Shown: piece by piece, positions 3,040 through 63,125 of the stretch
Layout: each line of letters starts with the position of its first letter
Position numbering within the stretch: the stretch's first letter is position 1
NCBI GenBank assembly: GCA_030264375.1
Contig: JASCQW010000001.1
Span: forward strand, 92,369,280-92,433,279
Direction: 5' to 3'
Source: Carcharhinus longimanus
Taxonomy: Eukaryota
Length of the DNA stretch: 64,000 bases
Translations under genes and position numbers: made by a program
The notes under the pieces: generated by a model
Databases searched by the model: none
The model's input: only the letters and a program-made list of their open reading frames with translations
Told to the model about the DNA's origin: nothing

Positions 3040-3565
3040 ATCTTTCCTATTCTATGATAAACCTTAGCAACAACCTATGTTTAAGATATCTGTGCATTAT
3101 TAAGGTGCAGTCACTGAAATATATCAACTTCTGCATCCATCACTCCAACCTCAGAGCAGGGAAAGGAGCATATTGATCGCTAGTAGCAGTAATGGTGAAT
3201 GCACCAGTAGTATTTCAATTGGTTCTGGAAATAGTAGCAATATCTTGAAGTTTTCAGTCAACTGAGACATGAAGGAAGTCACTGAGCTTCTCTATTCAAA
3301 AGGAAATAACTCCATTTAACTCCCTCATCCCCAGAGACAAACAAGTAGAATGAGCATGAGGGTCTACAAGGATTGCAGGCTTTTACATAGCGCAGAGTGC
3401 CATTGACTGCACAAACATCAGCAGGTAAACTTTGGCAGGTAGCAGAACTGCAAAGGATTCCAATTGTTCAATGTCCTGCTGGTTTAAGTAGGCAGCACAT
3501 CATCCAGGTCAATGCCCAATATCCCAGCAGCTGTCACAATGCCTTTATTCTGTGGCAGCTTTATT
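3040..3565 (+). pseudogene. PIF/Harbinger (HARBI1-like) DDE transposase remnant
   Basis: Broken frames give AVTEIYQLL, QSAIDCTNI, CKGFQLFNVLLV and IIQVNAQYPSSCHNAFILWQ (cf. GAIDCTH, NRKG.HS.NVQ, A.YPGS.HD.FIL). Confidence 0.8.
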
Positions 3566-3659: not shown

Positions 3660-4475
3660 TTGATTTGATTTGATTTATTAGTGTCACATGTATTAACATA
3701 CAGTGAAAAGTACTGTTTCTTGCATGCTATACAGACAAAAACATACTGTTCATAGAGAAGGAAATGAGAGAGTACAAAATGTAGTGTTACAGTCATTGCT
3801 AGGGTGTAGAGAAAGATCAACTTAATGCAACATAAGTGCATTCAAAAGTCTGACAGCAGCGGGGAAGTTGTTCTTGAGTCAGTTGGTAAGTAATCTCAGC
3901 CTTTTGTATCTTCTTCCCAAAGCTATACGCTATTCAGGAAAAAACAGCCTGTTTGATTAGAAAGTGGAAGAGAGAATGTCCAGGGTGTGTGGGCTTCTTA
4001 ATTATGCTGGCTGCTTTGCTGAGGCAGCGAGAATAGCAGACAGATTCAATGGATGGGAGGTTGGTTTGTGTGATGGATTGGGCTACATTCACGACTTTGT
4101 GTTTCTTGGGTACAGCAGAAGTCTTACCAAGCTGTGATACAACCGGAAAGAATGCTTCCTATGGTGCAACTGTAAAAGTTGGTGAGTCGTAGCTGACGTG
4201 CCAAATTTCCTTAGTCTTCTGAGAAAGTAGAGGCGGTTGTTGACTTTCTTAACTATAGTATCGGCATGGGGAGACCAGAACAGGTTGTTGGTGATCTGGA
4301 CACTAAAAACTTGAAGCTCTTGACCCTTTCCTCTTCATCTCCATTGATGTACACAGGGACATGTTCTCCTTTATGCTTCCTGAAGTCAATGACAATCTCT
4401 TTCGTTTTATTGACATTGAGGGAGAGCTTACTGTTGCTGCACCAGTTCAGCAGGTTCTCTATCTCATTCCTATAT
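3660..4475 (-). mobile_element. Rex1/Babar LINE 3' part
   Basis: Minus strand encodes SLNVNKTKEIVIDFRK; (AAATC)n tail at about 3660-3675; matches 37310-38205. Confidence 0.85.
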
Positions 4476-4572
4476 TCTATGTATCAAAGAGATTTGTAAT
4501 GTTTCATCTGGCGTCAAACCATCGACTGCTGCAAAGATCCTGACAAATTACAAAGATGTTTCCACAAGTCTT

Positions 4573-5034: not shown

Positions 5035-5230
5035 TTCTTTTTTATTGACTTGTGGGGCATGGGTGTCGCTGACTGGGCCAGCATTTATTGCCTATCCCTA
5101 GTTGCCCTTAAACTGAATGGCTTTATCCAGACCATTTCAGAGGGCAGTTAAGAGTCAACCACATTGCTGTGGCTCTGAAGTCACATGTGGGGCTAGACCA
5201 GGTGAGGAGACAGATTTCCATCCCTAAAGA
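5035..5230 (-). mobile_element. Family-T SINE, 3' half
   Basis: Reverse complement of cacagcaatgtggttgactcttaactgccc...aagggcaactagggataggcaataaatgctggcc. Confidence 0.8.
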
Positions 5231-11977: not shown

Positions 11978-12750
11978 TGGCGAATGCGTGGCAAAGTGGT
12001 TAGCACTGCTGCTTCACAGCGCCAGGACCTGGGTTCAATTCTGGCCTTGGGCTACTTTCTGTGTGGAGTTTGCATGTTCTCCCTGTGTCTGCGTGGGTTT
12101 CCTCTGGGTGCTCTGATTTCCTCCCACAGTCTAAAAATGTGTGGGTTGATTTTTTTCTAGTTGTATCACACTTGTATGGCTCCTGCTCTGCCCAAGACCA
12201 CAAGGGGCTATGAAAAAGCATGAATGCAGCCCAATCCATCATGCAAACCAGCCTCCCATCCATTGTCTCTGTCTACACTTTCCATTGCCTCAGGAAAACA
12301 GCCAGCATAATTAAGGAACGCACGCACCCTGGACAGCCTCTCTTCCATCGGGAAAAAATGCAGAAGTCTGAGGTCACGTACCAACCGATTCAAGAACAGC
12401 TTCTTTCTTGCAGCTGTCAGACTTTTGCATGGACTTACCTTGCATTAAGCTGATGTTTTTCTGCACCCTAGCTCTGAGTGTAACACTACAGTCTGCACTC
12501 TCCCATTTCCTTCTCTATGAATGGTATGCTTTGCCTGCATAGCGTGCAAGGAAAATAACTTTTCACTGTATGTTAATACACATGACAATAATAAATCAAA
12601 TCAACTCAAATCAAACCATGCTAAATGGACCCTAGTGTCAGGGGGATGGTAAAAATGTGGGGTTATGGAAATAGGGCCCGGGTGGGATTGTGATCAGTGC
12701 AGACTCGATGGGCCGAATGGCCTCCTTCTACACTATAGGGATTCTATGAG
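11978..12750 (+). mobile_element. HE1-like V-SINE split by a Rex1 insertion
   Basis: Head and V-domain run to about 12150; the SINE resumes at ccatgctaaat (about 12616) and runs to ttctatga. Confidence 0.85.
12152..12615 (+). mobile_element. Rex1/Babar LINE 3' fragment
   Basis: AAQSIMQTSLPSI, TASIIK; tail aataataaatcaaatcaactcaaatcaaa. Confidence 0.85.
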
Positions 12751-13500: not shown

Positions 13501-14034
13501 ATAGGTTTTGAGCAGGAGCTGGATGGAAAAAGGACAAAAGGAAAGTCTGTGAAAACTCGGAGCTCGTTTTGGCTACATTCAGGCTTCAGAAAGAATTTTA
13601 TATGAAATTTTTCCTCAAGGTGGAATTGGATCAACTCCAGGTTCAGGTGCGTGGTATGTAGAAGGAGCAAGTCTGTGAGTGCAATTACTTTCTTATGCGC
13701 TTATCATAAATAAAGATATGTTCTTTTTAGCTGTGGGCTCGCATTGACAAGTGTAAATGCACTGGTTACTAGCAGTGATATTTGACACCATGGTGTCCTT
13801 GTGAAATTATACCTCCGGGGGGAATTACAACATGGTGGAGTCATTCCTACCATTAACAATGAAAAAAAGATGTAGGATTCAAATAGTTTATTTAGTAAGT
13901 GCTGGTAGATCTTCTGTGTCATTGCTGATTAAATCTGGATCTAGTTTCTAATGTTTACTGCAGTCTAGCTGCAGCCTAACTGGGACTGCAGTTTAACCAT
14001 CACTGTTGCTTAGCAAGTTTATTGAAGTAGAGGG

Positions 14035-14391
14035 GAGGTGATGGCCTAGTGGTATTATCAGCAGACTATTAATCCGAATGCTCTGGGGACCCGGGTTCAA
14101 ATCCCACCCTTTTAGAAAAAGTCTGGAATTAAGAATCTACTGATGACCATGAAACTATTGTTCACTAATGTCTTTTAGGGAAGGAAGTCTACCGTCCTTA
14201 CTTGGTTTGGCCGACATGTGACTCCAGAGCCACAGCAATGTGGTTGACTCTAAAATGGCCGAACAAGCCACTCAAGTTGTATCAGCATTTCAAGAAGGAA
14301 GCTCGCCACCACTTTCTCAAGGGCAACTTGGAATGGGCAATAAAACCTGGCCTAGCCAGAGACACCCATGTCCCACAAATTAATAAAAAAA
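14035..14391 (+). mobile_element. Family-T SINE, near full length
   Basis: A-box tggcctagtgg 14042-14052, B-box ggttcaaatcc 14094-14104, body ttagggaaggaa...cacagcaatgtggttgactc, family-T tail. Confidence 0.85.
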
Positions 14392-14589
14392 AGATATTTA
14401 GAGATTGGATGGGATTTTCTGGTTGCGCTCGCCCCAAAACTAGAAAATCTCACCCGAGATCAATGGACCATTGCATGGTCCAACCCCTGCCTTGCTTCTC
14501 TTCACCCTTATCCGCTACAGTTCCCAAAGTGGGCAGAACAGGAAAACTTCCCCCTGAAATCTCATTGAAATATGTCAAATGCTGAAGTT

Positions 14590-16974: not shown

Positions 16975-17490
16975 GTGTGATTGTCCTCATCATGAAGGTA
17001 GCATTTGACTTTGTTGAGGAGTCACTGGCTGCAGGTCATACCCAACACAAAGGAAGATGGTTCCAAATTTGTGATTGTTGGAGANNNNNNNNNNATTACA
17101 GCAATATCCTTGCCCCAAGTATTTTTAGCTGTTTTATCTCTCCATCCTAAGTTCAGAAGCGAAGATGTTTGCCAATGATTGGACAATGTACAGAACCATT
17201 TACAACTCCTCAGATACTGCAGTAGTCCATGTCAGCGTGCAGCAAGACTGGATCAAAATTCAGATTTGGGTTAATAAGTGGCAGACAATATTGTTGTCAC
17301 AAAAATGCCACAAAATTACCATCTGCAATTTGAGAAAATTGAACCACCTTTCTAAGCAAACAATCGCATTACTGTTGCAGAATTCCTAATCATCAAGAGA
17401 AGGCTGTGTGTTAGGCAGCAAGGAACTCACCTCCAAGCTTCCTAAAGTCTTCTCAACTTTATGCCTTTCTCAAGGCATAAGCCAAGTATG
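16975..17490 (+). mobile_element. Family-T LINE RT fragment
   Basis: K.AFD.V; MFANDWT (FADD-like); QIWVNKWQ. Confidence 0.7.
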
Positions 17491-21214: not shown

Positions 21215-21495
21215 GGAGGCAGTGGGCTAGTAATTCAGAGACCCAGGCTAATGGTCTGGTTTGAAATTTGAATGTAATGAAAATCTGAAATGAAAAGTCT
21301 AATGACGACCATTAAATCATTGTCAATTGTTGTAAAAACCCATCTGATTCCGTTAGGGAAAGTTATCTGTCATTCTTACCTGGTCTGTCCTACATGTGAC
21401 TCCAGATCTATAGCGACATGGTTGACGCTTTAATATCCTCAGGGATGAGCAATAAATGCCAGTATCACCCACATCCCATGAACAAATAAAGAAAC
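21215..21495 (+). mobile_element. Family-T SINE
   Basis: ctagtaattcagagacccaggctaat...aaaaacccatctg...cctacatgtgactccaga...cccacatcccatgaacaaataaa. Confidence 0.8.
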
Positions 21496-25339: not shown

Positions 25340-27320
25340 TTGGCCAAACTGCCCAAATTAAGCACTGTATCCCAAGAAGGAAGAAACATGGTAAGGTGAG
25401 AACGAGGCATCTATGGCTGATGAGGGAAGTCAAGCACTACATAAAAGCAAAAGAAAAATCATACAAAATGGTGAGGATCAGTGGGAGCCAGAGGATTGGG
25501 AAGACTTTGAAAGCGAGCAGAGGACAACTAAAAAAGCAATAAGGGGGGAGAAGGTGAAATATGAGTGTAAGGTAGCTAGTGATATAAAGGAAGATAGGAA
25601 GAGCTTTTTTCAATATATAGAAGGTAAGAGAGAGGCAAAAATAGACATTGGACCACTGGAAAATGAGGCTGGAGAAGTAATAATAGGAAACAAATGTCAG
25701 AGGAACTAAATAGTTACTTTGCATTAGTCTTCACGGTGGAAGACACCAGTGGGATGCTAGAGCTCCGGGAGAATCAGGGGGCACAGGTGAGTGTAGTTGT
25801 CATCAGAAAGGAGAAGGTTCTGGGGAAACGGAAAGGTTTGAAGGTGGATAAGTCACCTGGACTGGATGGAATACACACTAGAGTTCTAAAAGAGATAGCT
25901 GAGGAAATTGTGGAGGCATTGATGGGGATCTTTCAGCAATCACTATAGGCAGGGAGGGTCCCAGGGGTCTGGAAAGTAGCTAATGTAACACCACTGTTTA
26001 ACAAGGAAGGGAGGCAGCAGACGGAATTATAGGCCGGTTATCCTGACTGCCGTCATTGGCAAGATTTTAGAGTCCATTATTAAAAATGAGTTCGCGGAGT
26101 ACTTGGAAGTGTATGATAAAATAGGACTGAGTCAGCACGGCTTCATCAAGGGGAGGTCATGTCTGACAAATCTATTAGCGTTCTTTGAAGAGGTAACAAG
26201 GAAGTTAGATAAAGGAGAACCAGTGAGCATGATTTATTTAGATTTCTAGAAGCCTTTGACAAGGTGCCACATAGGAGACTTAAATAAGTTAAGGGTAAGA
26301 ACCTGGCATAGATAGAGGATTGGCTGACTGGCAGGAGGCAGAGAATGGGGATAAAGGGGTCTTTTTCAGGATAGCAGCTAGTGACTAGTGGTATGCCTCA
26401 GGGGTCGGTGCTGGGACCACAGCTTTAAACAATATACATTTGGAACGATTTGGAAGAAGGAACTGAAGGCACTGTTGCTAAGTTTGCAGATGATATAAAG
26501 ATATGTACAGGGACATGTAGTATTGAGGAAGCAGGGGGGCTGCAGAAGGACTTGGACAGTTTAGGAGAGTGGGTAAAGAAATGGCAGATGGAATACAATG
26601 TGGAAAAGTGTGAGGCTATGCATTTTGGAAGGAGAAATGGAGGCATATGCTATTTTCCAAATGGGGAAATGCTTAGGAAATCAGAAACACAAAGGGACTT
26701 GGGAATCATTGTTCAAGATTCNNNNNNNNNNNNNNNNNNNNNNNNNNNNNNNNGCAAATGCAATGTCAAGAGGGTGAGAATACAATCTTAGGGATGTACT
26801 TGTGAGGCTATATAAGGCTCTGGTCAGACCCCATTTGGAGGATTATGAGCAGTTTTGGGCCCCATATCTAAGGAACAATGTGCTGGCCTTGAAAAGGGTC
26901 CAGAGGAGGTTTACAAGAATGATCCCAGGAATGAAGAGTTTGTCGTATAAGGGGTGGTTGAGGACTCTTGGTCTGCACTCGTTGGAGTTTAGGATGAGGG
27001 GGGATCTTACTGAAACTTACAGGATACTTTGAAGATTGGATAGAATGGACTATTAGGAAAAACTAGAACCAAAGGGCACAAGGGTGCCCTTTAAAACAGA
27101 GGTGAGGAAGAAGAGCGGTGAATATGTGGAACTCTTTGCCACAGAAGACTGTGGAGGCCACGTCATTGAATGTCTTTAAGACAAAGATAGATAGGTTCTT
27201 GATTAATAAGGGGATTAGCAGTTATGGGGATGAGAAAAATATCAGCCATGATTGAATGGCAGAGCAGACTCATTGGGCCAAGTCACCTAATTCTGCTTCT
27301 ATGTCTTATTGTCTTATGGA
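25340..27320 (+). mobile_element. CR1 LINE, ~2 kb 5'-truncated ORF2 pseudogene
   Basis: KSPGLDGIHTRVLKE, SQHGFIKGRSCLTNL, GMPQGSVLGP, KFADD, LYKALVRPHLE; frameshifted; tcttat-repeat tail. Confidence 0.95.
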
Positions 27321-32315: not shown

Positions 32316-33120
32316 TAATGGGCTAATTTTGGATCCAACTTGCCACTTACCATTGGACTCCAGGAACTTTTACTTTACTGACCATCCTGCTATATGGAGC
32401 TTTATCAAAAGCCTTTCTAAAATCCATGTTGGCTATAGCAAAACTATTACTTCACTAACTCTTTGTAGCTGCCTCAAAAATTTCAATCAAGTTAGTCAGA
32501 CATGACCTTCCCTTAACAAATCCATGCTGCATGTCCTTATTTAATCTGCATCTTTCTAAATGATGATTTGTGCTGCTTCTCAGAATTCCTTCTAATAATT
32601 TGCCCACTTCTGATGTTAGGCTGACTGACCTGCAATTACTCAGAATATCCTTTCCTACTTTTTTAAACAATAGCAGAATGTTAATAGCCCTCCAGTCCTC
32701 TGGCACTATGCCTATAGCCAAGGAGAATTGAAAGATAATGATCAGAGTTTCTGTTATAATTTCCCTTGTTTCCATTAGTGACCATGAATATATTTCATCT
32801 GAACCAGGCAATCTATCCAATTTCAACTATGCTAAACACTTTAATATTTCCTACCTCATTGTTTATTCCCTCCAATAGTTCAAACTCCTCCTCCTTAATT
32901 ACAATGCCTGGTTCATACACCTCTTTTGTAAAAACAGGTGCAAAATGTTCATTAAAAGCTACATCCACATCTTCCATTGCTACACAAAAAATTACCTTTT
33001 TCATCTCTAATGGGTCCTATTCTTTCAACGTTATGTCTGTGTTTTGCCTATTCATAAAACATTTTTGAGTTTTCCTTGATTTTACTTGCCTCTCTTTACT
33101 TTCCTGAATTCATTTTTAAT
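32316..33120 (-). mobile_element. CR1 RT fragment
   Basis: ORF 32455-32826: GIVPEDWR, QHGFVKGRSCLTNLIE. Confidence 0.9.
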
Positions 33121-34739: not shown

Positions 34740-35075
34740 AAACAAGGCACGCTGCTGTCTTACTTACTCTGACAGCATCTTTCCAAAAACCATGACTTCT
34801 ACTGCCTGGAAGGACAAGGGCAGCAGGTACTTTGGAACACCACAGCCTGTAAGTTTTCTTCCAAGCCATGCACCGCCCTGACTAAGTTCCTTCACTGTTG
34901 CTGGGTCAAAAACCTCAGACTGCCTCCCTAAAAGCGCTGTGGGTATAGTTGTACCACATTGGCTGAGACAATTCAAGATGGCAGCTTGCCACCTCCTTCT
35001 CAGGGGCCATTAAGATGGACAATACATGCTGGCCTTGCCAGTGACACCCAGACTCCTTGAACACATTTTTAAAAT
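34740..35075 (+). mobile_element. Family-T LINE 3' end
   Basis: Colinear with about 2620-2938. Confidence 0.8.
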
Positions 35076-35617: not shown

Positions 35618-36304
35618 CCTCATGGTTGATCTCTTCTTAATTTTCATAGAATCTCTATAGTACAGAAGGACATCATTCGTCATCGCTCCGCTCTCTATGT
35701 CTACCTTGTCAATCCCCGTTAGTATCTTACATACTTCAATTAGATCAAATTCTTTAAGCGCTTTCAGAAAATTCAGAGCAAGGTGGTTGCAATATCCTGA
35801 ACAGAAAGTTTAAAAAGCTGCCTTGTTGAATCTTTCCTGAGTTGTGAATGTTTAGCCTTTGGTTTTAACATGTCTGTGGAGTGTTACTAAAGTACACTTG
35901 TTCTCAACTCCAATATTTTTTCCAAGAAACAATGGGTTTGCATTTGGTGACCAAGTTTCCTCCACCTTCAGCTCAGTGGCTGAAGATACTTTGGGGGCAG
36001 GTGGAGGTGCTGGGTCACAAAAGCTGACTGATAGCAGCAGAGGCGGTGACAGGCCTCTGTGTTATCAGAGCACAGAATCCTGCACAAGCGCAATTGCGAC
36101 CCCTGCTGCTATCATCTGGCTTTTAGACAATTCCCCCACTACCTCTGCTGGCGAATTTCAAGTTTGTCAAGATTTTTTTGCATAATTCAGGTAAGATTTG
36201 ATTTTTAAGTTGCCCTGAAAAAAGGCATGAATTTCTCCCACTTTCACACTCGTTTGGCACACGCAATTTTTTTGGTCCCCTCTGTGCTTTTGTTCCCCAT
36301 TATT

Positions 36305-36560
36305 CTGTCACGGGATGTGGATGGCGCTGACTGGGACAGCATTTGTTACCCATCCCTAGTTGCTCTTGAGCTGAGAGCATTTCTGAGAGTTGTTAAGAGT
36401 CAAACACATTGCCACGGGTCTCAAGTCACAATTAGGCCAGACCAGGTAATAATGGCAGATTTCCTTCCCTGAAGGGCATTAGTGAATGCGATGGGTGTTC
36501 TGTGCCCATCATTACCAGGACTAGTTTTCAATCCTAGATTTTACTGATTAAATTCAATTG
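36305..36560 (-). mobile_element. Family-T SINE, 3' part
   Basis: gggatgtggatggcgctgactggg...ttaagagtcaa...ttccttccctgaagggcattagtgaa. Confidence 0.78.
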
Positions 36561-37309: not shown

Positions 37310-38205
37310 GTGTTTTCATCCCCCGGTATACTCCTTTAACACCGATGACTGTGTGGCCAATTCAGTTTTCAAGTTTGCTGACGATACCACTGTAATCTGT
37401 GGTATCGGCGGGTCGGATCTCAAACAATGACGAGACAGAGTACAGGAATGAGATAGAGAATCTAGTGAACTGGTAGGGCAGCAATAATCTCTTCCTCAAT
37501 GTCAACAAAATGAAGGAGATTGCTATCGACTTCAGGAAATGTAAACGAGAACATGTCCTTGTCCGCATCGACGGGGACGAAGTAAAAAGAGTCGAGAACT
37601 TCAAGTTTTTAGGAGTCTAGATCACCAACAACCTGTCCTGGTGCCGACACTACAGCCCCCCAACGCTTCTACTTTCTCAGAAGACTAAGGAAATTTGGCA
37701 TGTCAGCTATGACTCTTACCAACTTTTACAGATGCACCATAGAAAGCATTTTTTCTAGTTATATCACAGCTTGGTATGGCTCCTGCTGTGCCCAAGACCG
37801 CAAGGAACTACAGAACGTAGTGAGCGTAGCCCAATCCATCACACAAACCAGCCTCCTATCCATTGACTCTGGCTACACTTCCTGTTGCCTTGGCAAAGCA
37901 GCCAGCATAATTAAGGACCCTACGCACTCCTGACATACACTGTTCCACCTTCTTCCTTTGGGAAAAAGATACAAAATCCTGAGGTCATGTACCAACCGAC
38001 TCAAGAACAGCTTCTTCCCTGCTGCTGTCAGACTTTTGAATGGACTTGTTTTGCATTAAGTTGATCTTTCGCTACACCCTAGCTATGACTGTAACATTAC
38101 ATTCTGCACTCTCTCATTTCCTTCTCTGTGAACAGTATGTTTTGGCTGTATAGCACTCAAGAAACAATACTTTTCACTGTATGTTAATACATGCAAATCA
38201 AATCT
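37310..38205 (+). mobile_element. Rex1/Babar LINE 3' part
   Basis: FKFADDTTV, ISNNDETEYRNEIENLVNW, LNVNKMKEIAIDFRK, FYRCTIESI; aaatcaaatc tail. Confidence 0.9.
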
Positions 38206-41385: not shown

Positions 41386-41689
41386 GAAGCTCCCTTATGC
41401 AAACCTATGTTCTTTGTACAAATACAAGTAGTAGCCTGCCATCCACTGCAGCTTTTGAGTGGCACTAACCAGTGTGGCTTCTTGAATTAAAGCAGCAGAT
41501 GCTTCTGAGACACAACAACCATATAGAAATCCACAGTACCCAGGGGAAAACACAGCAGCAAACAAACAACAGCCACTTCTACAGAAATACAATCATTGCC
41601 TGAAATCATACTTCTTGTATTCACTAGATGACCTGTGTTCTTTGCACAGCCAATGATGTTCTCCAACAAAAACAAAATACTATGGGGTA

Positions 41690-42136
41690 ATGGGGTCCAT
41701 AGCATAATTGTGATGTTACTGGATTAATAATCTAAACTAGTACTCCAGAGTCATGAGTTTAAATCAATGACAGCTGGGGGAATTTGAACTCAATTGATTA
41801 ATTAATGTTGAATAAAATGCTAGGCTCATTAATCATGATCATGAAACTACAGGATTCTCATCGTTTTAAAAAATGCGTTCACCAACCCCTTTTGAGAAAG
41901 AAATATGCCATCCTTACCCAGATTCACAGTAATGTGATTAACTCTTCACTGTCCACTGTGAAATGGTCTGGCAAGTCATTCAGCTGTATTAAACCACTAT
42001 AGAAAAAAAGCACAGTGGGCGTACCTATACCACATGGCCTGCAGCAATTGAAGAAGACTATCTTCTCGAGGGCAATTAGGAATGGACAATAAACGCTGGC
42101 CTTGCTAGCGACATGCTAATCTCAAGATCAAAAAAT
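41690..42136 (+). mobile_element. Family-T SINE variant with longer LINE-derived segments
   Basis: Head and body join at about 42010 to gcacagtgggcgtacctataccacatgg (cf. 2794). Confidence 0.75.
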
Positions 42137-44319: not shown

Positions 44320-45677
44320 TAATTCAGTAGGCGTTGCTGGGTTGGCCAGCATTTAATGCTTATCCACAGTAGCCCATAGGAAGGTATTAATGAACACCTT
44401 TCCTGAACTGCTGCAGGCCATGTGGTGTAGGTACATAAACAATTATGTTGGCAGGGAATTCCAGGACTCAATGACAATAATGGCAATATATTTCCAATTC
44501 TGAATGGGAAGAGAAATTGGAGGTTGTGAGGTTCCCTTGCACATGTTGTCCTTGTTCTCTGAGATGATAGAAGGTGCTATCAAAGAAGCCTTGATGAATT
44601 CCTGCAATACCTTTTGGAGATGATGCACATTGCAGCCAGTGTGTGCTGTTGGTGGATGGGGTGTTGATCAAGCAGCTGCTTCATTCTAAAAGTATTGATC
44701 TTCATGAATGTTGTTGGAGCTACACTCATTTGTGTCTGGTGTCAGGAGATAAGTTACTTGCTGCAGAATACATAGGTTTGACACGTAACTGGAGTATTTA
44801 TATGGCTGGTCAAGGTATATTTCTGTTCAATGTTGACCTCCCAGGATGTTGATAATGGAAAATTTCAACAATGGTAGTGCTTTTAAATATTATGGGGAGA
44901 TAGTCATTGCCTGGCGTTTGTGAGATGCAAATATTACCTGCTACATCCAATCCTGAATGTGGTCCATGTATTGCTAAAGGTAGGCACAAATTGCTTCAAT
45001 ATCTAAAGATTTACAAATAAAACTGAACACTGTGCAATCATCAGCAATGGTCCCATTTCTGATCCACTGTTGGAGTGAAGATCATTGATCAAACTGCTGA
45101 AGATGTTTTAATCTGGGACACTCATGCAGTGAGGTCCTGTGGCTGGGTTGATTAGCTTCTGACAACTGCATCTTTTTTGTTAGGTATGATGTCGGCCAGT
45201 GAACAGCTTCCCCTCTGATTCCAATTTTACTTGGGCTCCTTAATGCCACACTCAGTTAAATGCTGCCTTAATGTTTAGGATAGGAATTCACACCTCATTT
45301 CTGGAATTGAGCTCTTTTGTCCTTGTTTGGACCAAGACTGTAATGAGGTCTGGAGCCAAGTGGTCTTGATAGAAGCCAAAGTGTACACTGGTGAGTAGGT
45401 TATTGCCAAGTAAGTGTAATTTAACACTACAGACAACCTTGACCATTTGATGGAGCATTGAGTGGTGTGAAGTTGAATTTTAAGGCAGATGATCATTTGC
45501 AGGCATTTGTGTGGCTGAAATACTTTGACACTTATCAGATCAGGCCTGGATGCTGTCTAGGTCTTACTGTATGTGTACATGGACATTCTCACTTTCTGAA
45601 GAGTTACAGATGAAACTAACATGTTCAGTCATCAGCAAACATTCTTATGATGGAAAGATGGTCATTGATGAAGAGAT
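44320..45677 (-). mobile_element. Family-T LINE 3' ~1.3 kb (decayed)
   Basis: Antisense tail gcgttgctgggttggccagcattta; FSSLINDL and ADDCTVF on the minus strand. Confidence 0.8.
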
Positions 45678-50596: not shown

Positions 50597-50893
50597 TTTA
50601 TTTATTTATTTATTAGTATAACAAGTAGGCTTTCATTAGTATTGCAATGAAGTTACTGTGAAAATCCCCCAGTCTCCACACTCCAACACCTGTTTGAATA
50701 CACTAAGGGGCAATTTAGCATGGCCAGTGCACCTAATCAGCACATCTTTGGACTGCGGGAGTAAACTGGAACATCCGGAGGAAACCCACACAGACACAGG
50801 GAGAATGTACAGACTCCCGCACAGACAATGATCAAAGCCGGAAACCGAACCCGACTTCCTGGCACTGTGAGGCAGCAGTGCTAATCACTGTGT
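50597..50893 (-). mobile_element. HE1-like V-SINE with Rex1-type tail
   Basis: (ttta)n followed by the same antisense tail as 35324. Confidence 0.85.
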
Positions 50894-51597: not shown

Positions 51598-53335
51598 TTA
51601 TAGCGTTGGTAAAAGATTCATATCGCTGGACTACAAATCCAGAGGCCCAGGCTAATACTCTGGGGACACAGGTTCAAATCCAATCACTGAAGCTGATGGA
51701 ATTTAAATTTAATTGATAAATCTGAAATTAAAAAGTTTATCTCAGTTACACTGATATGCAACAATTGTCATTTGTAGTAAAAACCCATCTGGTTCAATAA
51801 TGTCCCTCAGGGAAGGAAATCTGCCACCCTCACCTGGCCTGGCCTACATGTGACTCCAGACCCACAACAATGTGGTTGACTCTTAGCTGTCCAATGAAAT
51901 GGTCTACCAAATGACTCAGTTACATCAAAATGCTAGAAAGTCTATAAAAAGGGGAATGAGACTGAACCAACTACCTGGCATTGACCTGGCCAGTGGAAAT
52001 GACAACAGCAAACTCGGCCCTGTTGATCCCGCAAAATCTTCCTAACATCTGGAAGCTTGTGCCAAATAGGGAGAGCTGTTCCAAAGAACCATCAGCAACA
52101 ACCTGACATGGTCATGCTCATTTAATCATATTTACAGATAATGACCTTGGCACACCATCACCATCATTGGGTATGTCCTGTCCAACCAATGGGAGAGACC
52201 CAACAGAGGTTGGGTCACAGTATCTGTCCACAGTGAACCAGTTGGAAGAAGCACTAAGGATGACAAGGACATAGAGTGTACTTTAAGTGGGGATTTTCAA
52301 TGTCCATTATCAAGAGTGGCTTGGTAGCACCACTTAAGACTGGGTCTGTGGAAGATGGTGGGGGAACCAACAAGAGGGGAAAACCTATTGATTTTGTCCT
52401 CACGCCATCTATTTGTCGCAGATACAACTGTCCATGACCGTATCAGTAGAAATGGCCACTGTACAGTCCTTTGGGAATCAAAATCCTGTCTTCACATTGA
52501 GAAAGCCTCCATCTTGTTGTGTGACACTACCACCATGTTAAATGAAATAGATTGAGAACCATTTCAACAACTAAGAACTGGGAATCTGTGAAGCATTCTG
52601 AGCCACCAGCAGCAGCAGAAATGTATACAACCACAATGTGTAATCTCATGGCCTGACATATCCCCCATCTACCATTACCATCAAGCCAGGGATTCAATCA
52701 AGAATGGAGGAGGGTCTGTCAGGAGCAGCACCACGCATGCCTAAAAATCAGGTGTCAACCTGGTGAAGCTACAGTGCAGGACTACCTGCATGTCAAACAG
52801 TATTAACAGCTTGTGATAGATGGCTCTAAATGATTCCACAACCAACAAATAAGACTTAAGCTCTGTAATCCTGCTATATTCAGTTGTGAGTGATGGTGGG
52901 CAAACTGGAGGAGGATCCAAAAATATCCCCAGATTCAATGATGTGTGAGTCCAGTACGTCAGTGCAAAAGAGAAGGCGGAAGCATTTGCAAACATCTACA
53001 GCCTGGAGTGCCAAGTGGATGATCCGTCTTTGTTTCCTCCTGAAGTCTCCAGCATCACAATTGCCAATCTTCAGCCAATTTGATTAATTCCACATGTTAT
53101 CAAGGTACTGGATACTGCAAAAGCTATGGGTCCTGGCAATTTTCCATCAATAGTACTGAAGAATTATGCTCTACATAACTAGTTGTGTCCCTAGCCAGAC
53201 TGTTCTAGTACAGCTACAACACTAGCATCTATCTGTCCATGTGAAAAAATGCCCAGGTATGATCTGCACACAAAAGGACAATTTCAACCTAGCCAATTTC
53301 CACCCCTTCTCAATCATCAGCAAAGTTTGATGGTG
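51598..53335 (+). mobile_element. Family-T LINE 5' part: tRNA-like head, SINE-type body, then APE endonuclease and RT start
   Basis: B-box ggttcaaatcc 51671-51681; then NIW.LVP, QQPD.V.L, G.FNVH.QEWLGSTT, EPTRG.NLL, LDTAKAMGPGN. Confidence 0.85.
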
Positions 53336-53904
53336 TTAGCTGTCAAGTCATTCAACCACAAGCATTGTCGCATCATGTTTAGAAGACAAACTTTTCAACA
53401 GCCACAGAATTGCCAACAGAATAAGAAGTCAGGGAATTTTTGTTCCTTCCTCCCCACTTGAGAATACTGGGTCCAATTTCTGTATTCAAACTGCTACAAG
53501 GCTTTGGTGTTCTTCCAATCTAGCAGGAATTCTGACAGATTGGTGATGGTGCAGTTTTTCGTCCCAATTGCCAGTCAGCATTCTGTTCTTGCCTGATAGT
53601 CCAGCTTCAGGCTCAATTTGTAAGCCTCCTGTTGCTAATTTGAATCATTCACCTCAGATGGACAGAGGAAAATTACTGCAAAATCTGCTGCTGGATTTGT
53701 CTTTAAATTTACTTTTATTGTTCTAATTTTCTAATCTCTTCCCAGTGCAATCAAACACTATTCAATCTATTGTACAATGCAGTGTGGCCATTTAATTAGT
53801 AAAATCATCTTTTGATGAATTAGAAATGCCAAATGCCAGGAAAGCAATGCTTGATACTTGTGTTGCTAAGCTATTAACAATGGAAAGTACATCCAATGTT
53901 TTCA

Positions 53905-54488
53905 ACAACAAAAACAGAAAATGCTGGAAAATCTCAGCAGATCTGACACAATCTGTGGAGAGAGAATAGAGCCAATGTTTCGAGTGTAGATGNNNNNNNN
54001 NNNNNNNNNNNNNNNNNNNNNNNNNNNNNNNNNNNNNNNNNNNNNNNNNNNNNNNNNNNNNNNNNNNNNNNNNNNNNNNNNNNNNNNNNNNNNNNNNNNN
54101 NNNNNNNNNNNNNNNNNNNNNNNNNNNNNNNNNNNNNNNNNNNNNNNNNNNNNNNNNNNNNNNNNNNNNNNNNNNNNNNNNNNNNNNNNNNNNNNNNNNN
54201 NNNNNNNNNNNNNNNNNNNNNNNNNNNNNNNNNNNNNNNNNNNNNNNNNNNNNNNNNNNNNNNNNNNNNNNNNNNNNNNNNNNNNNNNNNNNNNNNNNNN
54301 NNNNNNNNNNNNNNNNNNNNNNNNNNNNNNNNNNNNNNNNNNNNNNNNNNNNNNNNNNNNNNNNNNNNNNNNNNNNNNNNNNNNNNNNNNNNNNNNNNNN
54401 NNNNNNNNNNNNATAAATCGGTTGGACTAAAACCTGGTGTTGTCAGACTTTTTACTGTGTTTACCCCAGTCCAATGCCGGCACATTCA
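53905..54488. mobile_element. Two Penelope pLTR ends flanking a gap
   Basis: aaaaacagaaaatgctggaaaatctcagcag before the gap; family-B ggttggactaaaacctggtgttgtcagactttttactgtg after it. Confidence 0.75.
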
Positions 54489-57145: not shown

Positions 57146-58244
57146 TGCTCTCTCCTATGTTGTCCCATTCTTCAATGTTTCACAGGTTAAGATTCACTCC
57201 CTGCATGACTGCCAGTGCCGCCTTCTGCTCAATAACATTCATGTCCACGAGATTCAAGAAATCACTGAGTTTGTTTTCATCAGAAACTGTTAATGTGTTT
57301 CTCAGCTGGGGCTTCAGCTGGGGCTAGATTTCCAGCTGATTAACTGCTTATTTATACAAATCCCTCAATGGTATTGTTCTAAATGCAATGATGAAGTATA
57401 ACATAGATTGATTTTTATCTGTGACTCGCGCTAATATTGCACGAGTGGAATATTAAAATATTGCTATTAAACACTACGCATATTTCTCTATGTCTTACCT
57501 ACCCCTGGTTATTGTGAGTAGTCTGATTTATTTTGTTCTTGTAATTAAGATTTTAGAAATCCAGTGTAGGGCATTTATACTATCAATTATATACACTACC
57601 TTCTAAACCAGTAACAGATGAACTGGGTTTTAGGATAAAAAGCAGAAGCAACTCATGGATGTTAGGCAGTACTGGCGAAGTTCCTCTTCTTTGTCTTTGA
57701 AATGATGTTGAACTGCGTTCTGAAGAATCATACCATAAAAGTCATGGTAACGCTGTGCCAACAAAAATTACAATTTCTCAATCTTTATCCCCTCGGTCTC
57801 CCATTCCTCCTCCCTTTTTTAGAGATGGTCCAAATTCACTCATCCTACTGGCTATAGGACACAAATGATCTCATGTCACCCCACCATTGCAACAACACCT
57901 GCTTTATGGGTCATGAATTGTAGAAGTTTACATTCCAACAAAAACAAATGCACATTTCCTTCCAGGTAAAGAGAAACCATAAGTAAAGTCACATTATCTC
58001 ATCAATGTATATTAACCAAGCCCTCACTAAAGCTAATAAAATCCTCCTAGTTAAAATAATTTCTTATCATAATATCAGAGAATAAAGGTTTCCCCCCTCA
58101 GGTACAGGTCTATTAAAACACGCATGGTTTGTTTAGACAAAGTCATCCTAGGTTCACACTGTTTAGCCATTCCTTCAATCTGATTTAAAAACAAACATCT
58201 AATTGTATTGTGGCCGTAAAGATAGGATTTAAGGATTTTTAAAT

Positions 58245-58992
58245 TAATTATTGTCACATGTATTAGTATACAGTGAAAAGTATTGTTTCTTGTGTGCTAC
58301 ACAAACAAAGCATACTGTACATAGAGAAGGAAAGGAGAGAGTGCAGAATGTAGTGTTATAGTCATTGCTAAGCTATAGAGAAAGATCAACTTAATAGAAG
58401 GTAGGTCCATTCAGAAGTCTGATGGCAGCAGAGAAGAAGCTGATCTTGAGTAGCTTGGTACATGACCTCAGACTTTTCTATCATTTTCCTGATGGAAGAG
58501 GGTGGAAGAGAGAATGTCTNNNNNNNNNNGGTCCTTAATTATGCTGGCTGTTTTCTGAGACAGTGGGAAGTGTAGACAGAGTCATAGGATAGGAAGCTGG
58601 TTTGCGTTATGGAGTGGGCTTCATTCATGACCCTTTGTAGTTCCTTGCAGTCTAGGGCAGAGCAGGAGCCATACTAAACTGTGATACAACCAGAAAGAAA
58701 GCTTTCTATGATGCATCTGTAAATTTTGGTGAGAGTCGTAGCTAATATGCCAAATTGGCTTAGTCCTCTGAGAAAGTAGAAGCGTTGGTGGGCTTTCTTA
58801 ACTATAGTGTCGGCATGGAGGGACCAGGACACGTTGTTGGTGATCTAGATACGTAAAATTTTGAAGCTCGCTACTTCATCCCCATTGAAGTAAACAGGGG
58901 CATGTTCTCCTCTACACTTCCTGAAGTTGATGACAATCTCCTTCGTTTAGTTGCTATTGAGGGAGAGATTGTTGTTGCACCAGTTCACCAGA
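58245..58992 (-). mobile_element. Rex1/Babar LINE 3' part
   Basis: Colinear with 3660-4475. Confidence 0.88.
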
Positions 58993-59099
58993 TTCAGCTC
59001 AGCTCAAATGAGTTGTGTCATAAAACAATAAAACAAGTCTGTTCCTTCACAAACATCTGCTTCTTCTGGTTCCCCAACCATCTTGACTGCCCAACAACA

Positions 59100-62204: not shown

Positions 62205-62820
62205 ATGCACCCATGAGACAACACAGGACTACTTGCATGCCAAACAGCAGAAGCAGCAAGTAATAGGTAGCGCTAAGAAATCCCACAACTGTTGGACCAC
62301 AGTGCAGGAGGAGAACATTCGGTCCATCCACCCTCTACTGACTCTTCAACAGACATCTTACCTAGGCCTTATCCCCACTAATCTACACACCTTGGGACAC
62401 TAAGAGACAATATAGCACAGCCAATCAACCTAACTTGCACAGATTTAGACTGTGGGGGAAGTTAGAGTACCCAGCTGAAATCCACACAGACATGGGGAGA
62501 ATGTGCAAACACCCCACAGACTGTCATCCAAGGCCAAAAGTCTCTGGTGGTGTGAGGCAGCAGTGCTAGCCGCTGTACCACCGTGCTGCCCTAATCTCTG
62601 CAGCTCTGCCACATCCAGTTGTGAAAAGCAGTGGACAACTACACTAACTACACTAACTAGAGGAGGGGGCTCCACAAGTATTCCCATCTTCAATAATGGA
62701 TAAAACCAGCATATCAGTGTAAAAAAAGGCATATAAATCATTATCAGCCAGAAATGTGAAATAGATGATCTATCTTGGCTTCCTCCTGAAATCTCCAGCA
62801 TGACAGCTGCCAGCAATAGT
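62205..62820 (+). mobile_element. Family-T LINE fragment with nested antisense HE1-like SINE (about 62315-62590)
   Basis: Matches about 52770-53070; SINE V-domain on the minus strand. Confidence 0.75.
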
Positions 62821-62829
62821 ACTGGACAC

Positions 62830-63125
62830 TTGACTGAGTGTTCTTGTTAGACTGGTTTAGAGGGCAGTTAAGGGACAACCACATTACTGTGGGTCTGGTA
62901 TCACATATAAGCCAGACTAGGCAATGATGTCAGATTTCCAACCATAAAGGGCATTAATAAATGATGTGATGTTTGATGACAATTAATTAATGGTCCCCAT
63001 TATTGATACTAACTTTTAATTCCAGATATATTCATTGAATTTAATTCCAGCAGCGGCCATGTTAGGAAGATTTGAAGCCTTTCCTCTGAATTCATAGTCC
63101 AGTGACATTATCACTACTCCACCAC
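62830..63125 (-). mobile_element. Family-T SINE (decayed)
   Basis: agagggcagttaaggg..caaccacattactgtgggtctgg...tagtccagtgacattatcacta. Confidence 0.7.

Follow-up and report, generated by a model that had tools for sequence, protein, structure and literature searches.

A tRNA-like head at the 5' end of a shark Zenon LINE and its likely transcription by RNA polymerase III

The Zenon copy at 51598-53347

The window analyzed here is a stretch of 64,000 nucleotides from Carcharhinus longimanus (contig JASCQW010000001.1, positions 92,369,280 to 92,433,279 of the forward strand), and all coordinates refer to it. A decayed, 3'-truncated copy of a Zenon LINE, which belongs to the older subfamily, occupies positions 51598-53347 of the + strand and, aligned over 1,708 bases, shows 79% identity to the family consensus. 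Relative to the consensus, 138 bp are deleted from this copy at 52221 and a further 31 bp at 52334, and its end at ~53333-53347 corresponds to consensus base ~1,970-1,997 of ~3,290, the 3' 1.3 kb being missing. An N assembly gap (53993-54412) lies ~650 bases beyond this end, and the element is not resumed past the gap. The parts of the copy and the partner SINEs in the window were as follows:

51599..51693, + strand: tRNA-like head (ARAGORN, consensus and 5' ends); A box decayed here, intact in the family
51671..51681, + strand: B box (family GGTTCGAATCC), from sequence and consensus alignment
51694..51924, + strand: conserved body or 5' UTR, common to the SINEs (alignments); neither Deu nor Meta
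51925..52043, + strand: LINE-only stretch, encoding a basic N-terminal extension in the APE frame (consensus); out-of-frame ATG at 51956
52044..52500, + strand: decayed APE endonuclease domain, end approximate (motifs; Pfam PF03372 and PF14529 on sister copies)
52501..53347, + strand: decayed linker and RT start, up to the end of the copy, without a 3' tail (Pfam PF00078 on a sister copy)
41684..42135, + strand: older SINE with head, body, first codons and last ~130 LINE bases; break ~340/3160, a multi-copy type
14032..14392, + strand: SINE of the same family; break 326/3189
5035..5229, - strand: SINE belonging to this family, detected as body plus tail; common break 320/3223-3225
36300..36499, - strand: another SINE belonging to this family, body plus tail (alignment)
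21262..21430, + strand: SINE body of the same family (alignment)
62833..63061, - strand: head plus body belonging to this family, no tail found (alignment)

The head was the sole tRNA-like gene found by ARAGORN in the 64-kb window (51599-51693). The initial annotation, which was made from the letters of the window, had placed a B box at 51671-51681 behind a decayed A box, and both statements were borne out by the consensus alignment; the A box is regarded as decayed because 51598-51620 fails to align to the family consensus. APE motifs had been reported from about 52045 onward, followed by the start of RT, and NIW was mapped to 52044, GDFN to 52292, SDH to 52451, and the RT lead-in KAMG to 53121. 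The statement that head and body are the same as those of the short SINEs also held, since five elements matched with local scores of 145-196 against shuffled maxima of 51-69. Three TTTT runs are now present in the decayed copy. With SINEs counted, the Zenon family occurs about a dozen times in the 64 kb, further Zenon fragments being located at 2484-2936, 17137-17348, 34771-35050, 44330-45673, and 62223-62813.

Family structure, coding capacity and published relatives

A search for the junction was performed with a 261-base query, which gave 613 candidates, of which 40 (39 non-self) were scored. According to the initial annotation a junction unique to this locus would speak against a native element, and continuity of the head and body into the APE region had been proposed. 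The junction was found in one piece in 27 of the 39 non-self matches and is family-wide. No A-tail separates the body from APE, and native continuity is supported. In order to avoid selection for the head, loci were also collected with seeds from the coding part, using APE or RT alone. With the APE seed (n=30, seed included), 25 loci extended into the head or body, and 17 of these reached one sharp 5' start; of the other loci, 8/30 ended within the head or body and 5/30 at bases 326-486. With the RT seed (n=35), the 5' end was reached in four loci, every one of them via the head, and 31 were truncated. The sharp 5' end of the family consists of three or four G followed by the A box at about +11; this A box, TGGCCTAGTGG, is intact and begins at the 11th base of the element, and the family B box is likewise intact. 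No second start position was seen among the Zenon copies, and the sequences preceding 37 truncated and 15 full-head copies had nothing in common except other repeats. The tRNA-like head was also supported by ARAGORN, at a relaxed threshold, on the consensus; on 39 metagenome loci it reported no tRNA in 23, a weak negative because many of them lack 5' ends.

The Zenon consensus of ~3,290 bases comprises the head (to base 100), the 230-bp body (to base ~323), one APE-RT frame, a 50-base 3' UTR, and an A run. Five full-length copies end in AATGAAT followed by short A runs, and the 3' end carries AATAAA motifs together with the A-tail. The full-length members have neither an ORF1 nor a different 5' UTR, either of which, according to the initial annotation, would have refuted its reading, and the arrangement of a single ORF with APE and RT and without ORF1 is that of Zenon, in the CR1 group. 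In its 5' tRNA-like head, which contains A and B boxes, the 3.3-kb element is as expected of a SINE2, but it is neither short nor non-coding. No intact young copy was seen, the copies being ~88% identical to the consensus, and Rfam returned no match for two Zenon copies, head included (E 0.1). Identity with SacSINE1 or the DeuSINEs was rejected, as the three Deu motifs (PMC7245038, Fig. S4) were absent at 0-2 mismatches, as was identity with the MetaSINEs, the two Meta motifs being absent from the consensus, with one 2-mismatch match in the window copy.

Several headed copies carry large internal deletions elsewhere (L150, 344/1554; L161, 493/1162; L119; L138), some of them at short shared sequences, and such copies are raw material for new SINEs. 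One repeat end, which we take to be a CR1 3' tail, adjoins three 5'-truncated copies (L082, L102, and L134) at different Zenon positions, either through later insertions or through a targeting bias.

Reconstruction of the consensus ORF, which the initial annotation had called for, gave a frame of 978 codons (~970) with one stop at a variable site, and Pfam APE (PF03372, PF14529) and RVT_1 (PF00078) domains were detected on sister copies. The pN/pS ratio, calculated between the young and the older subfamily from 16 old loci in a reference-anchored manner, was 0.27 in the ORF frame over 416 codons and 1.17 and 2.22 in the other frames. This indicates purifying selection on the ORF, and therefore a functional protein product of the headed element, in agreement with the earlier proposal of an autonomous element. 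A non-autonomous element with shared frameshifts was considered and rejected, as the frameshifts were an artefact of consensus building and a single open frame was obtained instead. The closest protein matches were APE-RT proteins of 930-990 aa with 40-42% identity, and the stretch between body and APE codes for a basic in-frame extension resembling the N-termini of the closest relatives (P0006 and P0012).

Indels keep the frame from about base 330 onward and break it just upstream (assessed partly by eye), so translation should start near base ~330. No in-frame ATG precedes the APE domain in the family consensus, and the Zenon ORF likely has a non-AUG start. Whether the ATG at 51956 opens a functional upstream ORF is doubtful, because the stop of that ORF differs between the subfamilies. 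An HDV-like ribozyme or an IRES in the body was also rejected, Rfam giving no match and the P1/P1.1 pairings being missing by eye; the body showed no unusual folding (z -0.5 to -1.4).

Sharks and rays separated roughly 270-300 million years ago. The initial annotation had cautioned that the family might already be in repeat databases, and it is indeed in print as the elasmobranch Zenon LINE (PMC13343379), which is described in the main text of that paper as lacking ORF1 and having a poly-A tail, the five Zenon-1 entries being 3.2-3.3 kb long. All seven published elasmobranch consensuses (the Zenon-1 entries CarCar, HypSab, RhiTyp, and ScyCan, and SquAca Zenon-1/2/3) start, over their first 400 letters compared by eye, with the same head, body, and linker, and no structural difference from the present element was noted, these entries also being APE-RT elements without ORF1 and with an A-tail. 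Because all of these shark and ray consensuses carry the head, it predates the shark-ray split. The head was absent from the first 400 letters of all three of the hagfish (two) and coelacanth (one) Zenon entries of that source, the start of the coelacanth entry looking unresolved. In the main text of PMC13343379 the terms 'tRNA', 'promoter', and 'polymerase III' had 0 matches, and that text leaves the head, the loss of T-runs, and the matching SINE undescribed. The papers searched, few of them from subscription journals, contained no account of a Zenon with a Pol III head or of an autonomous LINE transcribed by Pol III; a LINE or SINE entry that comments on the head may exist in Repbase or Dfam. 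The Zenon family is thus known, and its promoter architecture appears to have gone unremarked.

Partner SINEs and their relation to the LINE

The main SINE measures 394 bases and consists of the two ends of the LINE joined together. Its break, 320/3223-3225, was shared by 26 of 31 copies (from 4,614 candidates), a fixed junction as expected of a SINE2. Among 29 head-seeded loci the majority run into the ORF and seven join the tail (six whole, one partial), with breaks at 318-365 / 3149-3225. The young SINE differs from the young LINE in 6/316 columns, compared with 28/319 between the young and old LINE, and its tail is that of the young LINE, the old LINE tail being different. The SINE at 41690 had been noted to keep extra LINE bases; it retains ~20-25 bases past the usual breakpoint, matching about 51924-51945. 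This type recurs, 5/25 loci joining ~327-345 to ~3157-3162, and keeps the first and last codons of the ORF. Since LINE-only bases flank its break on both sides, it likely derives from the LINE. The 320/3223 break is present on both old and young heads, which fits either deletions that recurred at one site or a persistent SINE exchanging homologous ends with the LINE. The proposal that the LINE is the parent of the SINEs therefore stands as likely for the 41690 type, but for the 320/3223 SINE long coexistence with end exchange fits equally well.

In a tree of the heads, built from 65 of 77 rows after unclassified rows and rows <250 bases had been left out, SINE and LINE rows were mixed and starred branches force at least three changes, but the bootstrap did not settle. 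Target-site duplications sought in 31 SINE and 5 LINE copies gave only short matches, by eye no better than chance. Splicing was rejected as the origin of the SINE junction, whose ends by eye do not fit GT-AG. In the contigs of another organism (L117:1296-1323, run X10), the SINE tail appeared as loose ends behind the body in 57 contigs, and depth on head and body was far above that on the ORF. The SINE form probably occurs widely.

Short elements with some of these properties have been described. The lepidopteran Zenon is likewise a single-ORF element of ~3.3 kb with a short, internally deleted partner made of its two ends, Persaeus, which has variable breakpoints; in the text of that report (PMC6740152), Persaeus lacks a Pol III promoter and shows no homology to tRNA, 5S, or 7SL, whereas the shark LINE and its partner both have one. 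Bipartite SINEs that stem from RTE and Vingi LINEs, among them Bov-tA and CoeSINE4, also combine a tRNA head with a LINE 5' part and a LINE 3' part, but as presented in PMC5786205 the head is added after the deletion and the LINE is headless, while in the shark Zenon the coding element itself is headed. The same text names only RTE and Vingi as donors of SINE middles. A possible precedent is found there with RTE-1_DAn and related elements, a Repbase LINE holding tRNA-like sequence, which, unlike the shark Zenon, belongs to the RTE clade. SacSINE1 and the DeuSINEs (PMC5499810, PMC7245038, in the parts concerned) are likewise represented in sharks by a tRNA-headed SINE with a conserved body, but the SacSINE1 tail is matched to L2-2_CM (PMC5499810), and the Deu motifs are missing from the Zenon body.

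T-runs and the polymerase that reads the LINE

Vertebrate Pol III terminates where the sense strand carries a run of four or more T. Depletion of TTTT on that strand, an earlier suggestion for a check, was found: the 3,287 bp consensus has 0 TTTT where 4.6 were expected (P 0.013), and 14 A, 11 C, and 9 G runs of the same kind. T runs >=3 numbered 5 against 22.1 expected, with 0 of 2,000 shuffles as low, and interrupted T-runs 0 against 8.1, the antisense strand being normal. TTTT is also absent from the resolved part of the old-subfamily consensus. In two other LINEs of the genome, which we take from their motifs to be Rex1 and CR1, it occurs 6 times in 1,009 bp and 5 times in 1,373 bp, and among raw genomic copies its density is 0.64 per kb in Zenon versus 6.40 and 4.25 in these controls. 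Among 27 distant LINE ORFs (>=250 residues, from 39 metagenome loci) none had a comparable T-run loss; these controls have 22-35% protein identity and may not be Zenon, and the closest relatives (40-42%) were compared as protein only. With codon usage held fixed, the loss of TTTT reached only P 0.09, and the signal in Zenon lies mostly in the use of TTC over TTT (16:2) together with a general avoidance of TT.

As full-length copies are headed and their sense strand is without T-runs, RNA polymerase III likely transcribed the element over its entire length. In such a scheme TFIIIC and Pol III would start about 10 bases before the A box, and Pol III would read through the 3.3 kb, a terminator being absent. 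Acting in cis, the APE-RT protein would then copy its own RNA, beginning at the 3' tail, through target-primed reverse transcription, which is the established mechanism of LINEs, and the abundant SINE RNA would use the same LINE tail in trans. Retrotransposition without ORF1p is reported for Pol III transcripts, whereas Pol II versions need it (PMC2666806), and by analogy a Pol III origin would spare the need for ORF1; the loss of ORF1 is nevertheless no evidence for Pol III, because headless Zenons also lack it. We are fairly confident that Zenon is a single-ORF LINE read by Pol III, likely translated from a non-AUG codon and likely either the source of its SINEs or their partner in end exchange. 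The stronger statement, that Zenon is an autonomous protein-coding Pol III retrotransposon which has kept a terminator-free 3-kb ORF throughout elasmobranch history, is translated from uncapped RNA with a non-AUG start, and is both a LINE and the source of its own SINEs, is marginally favored. Translation of uncapped RNA is the weakest step of the Pol III explanation, no mechanism for it having been found.

Against Pol III count the codon-fixed P 0.09, the distance of the controls, the missing in-frame AUG, the 3' AATAAA motifs and A-tail, the fact that no intact young copy was seen, and the TTTT runs of the window copy. In a different reading, Pol II makes the LINE from a promoter in the body or by host read-through, and the head is a passenger that the LINE acquired a single time from a SINE through template switching and that functions only in the SINE. 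Such an origin would accord with the treatment of LINEs as Pol II units in the text of PMC5786205 and with the lepidopteran Zenon of PMC6740152, which as described there is headless and has a short derivative without Pol III boxes. The A-tail and AATAAA motifs at the 3' end fit Pol II also, a capped RNA would solve the problem of translation, and the codon-preserving test of T-runs is compatible with it. It leaves unexplained, however, the strand-specific loss of T3, T4, and interrupted T-runs, which extends over the whole ORF in the young and old subfamilies, as well as the intact A and B boxes and the 5' end 10 bases before the A box, and we regard it as unlikely, though still a serious contender. 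A compromise, in which the boxes drive Pol III transcription of SINE-length RNA and of some full-length template RNA, and the protein comes from a Pol II transcript of its own, would reconcile the T-run loss (Pol III has to pass through the template) with the fact that no cap-independent start is evident; it requires two promoters plus action in trans on the template, the copies show no second start, and it seems improbable. The window copy is dead, as would suit a SINE that inserted here by chance in front of a truncated LINE, or a long non-autonomous SINE, but this reading is refuted by the junction, which is family-wide and cross-species, and by the pN/pS of the ORF, and almost no weight is left to it.

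In the working rule, LINEs are Pol II mRNAs and SINEs made by Pol III cannot code for protein, the latter being stated in the text of PMC5786205. If transcription of Zenon by Pol III is correct, the element would be a long-lived natural exception in which a Pol III transcript serves as mRNA for a 970-residue enzyme; the loss of ORF1 would be tied to the choice of polymerase, and SINEs would be born directly by deletion from a LINE that already bears the promoter.

Other repeats were also recognized in the window. Another LINE without ORF1, used as a control for T-runs, is represented by four 3' fragments (37437-38193 on the + strand, 3660-4478, 12150-12609, and 58243-58995), presumably Rex1-like by their motifs. 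A second and more abundant SINE family, which we assume to be HE1/V-SINE-like, is present at 50605-50892 and in about 15 more copies, one of which interrupts the Zenon fragment at 62223-62813. RT fragments at 25850-26713 and 32326-32805 are presumably of the canonical CR1 type.
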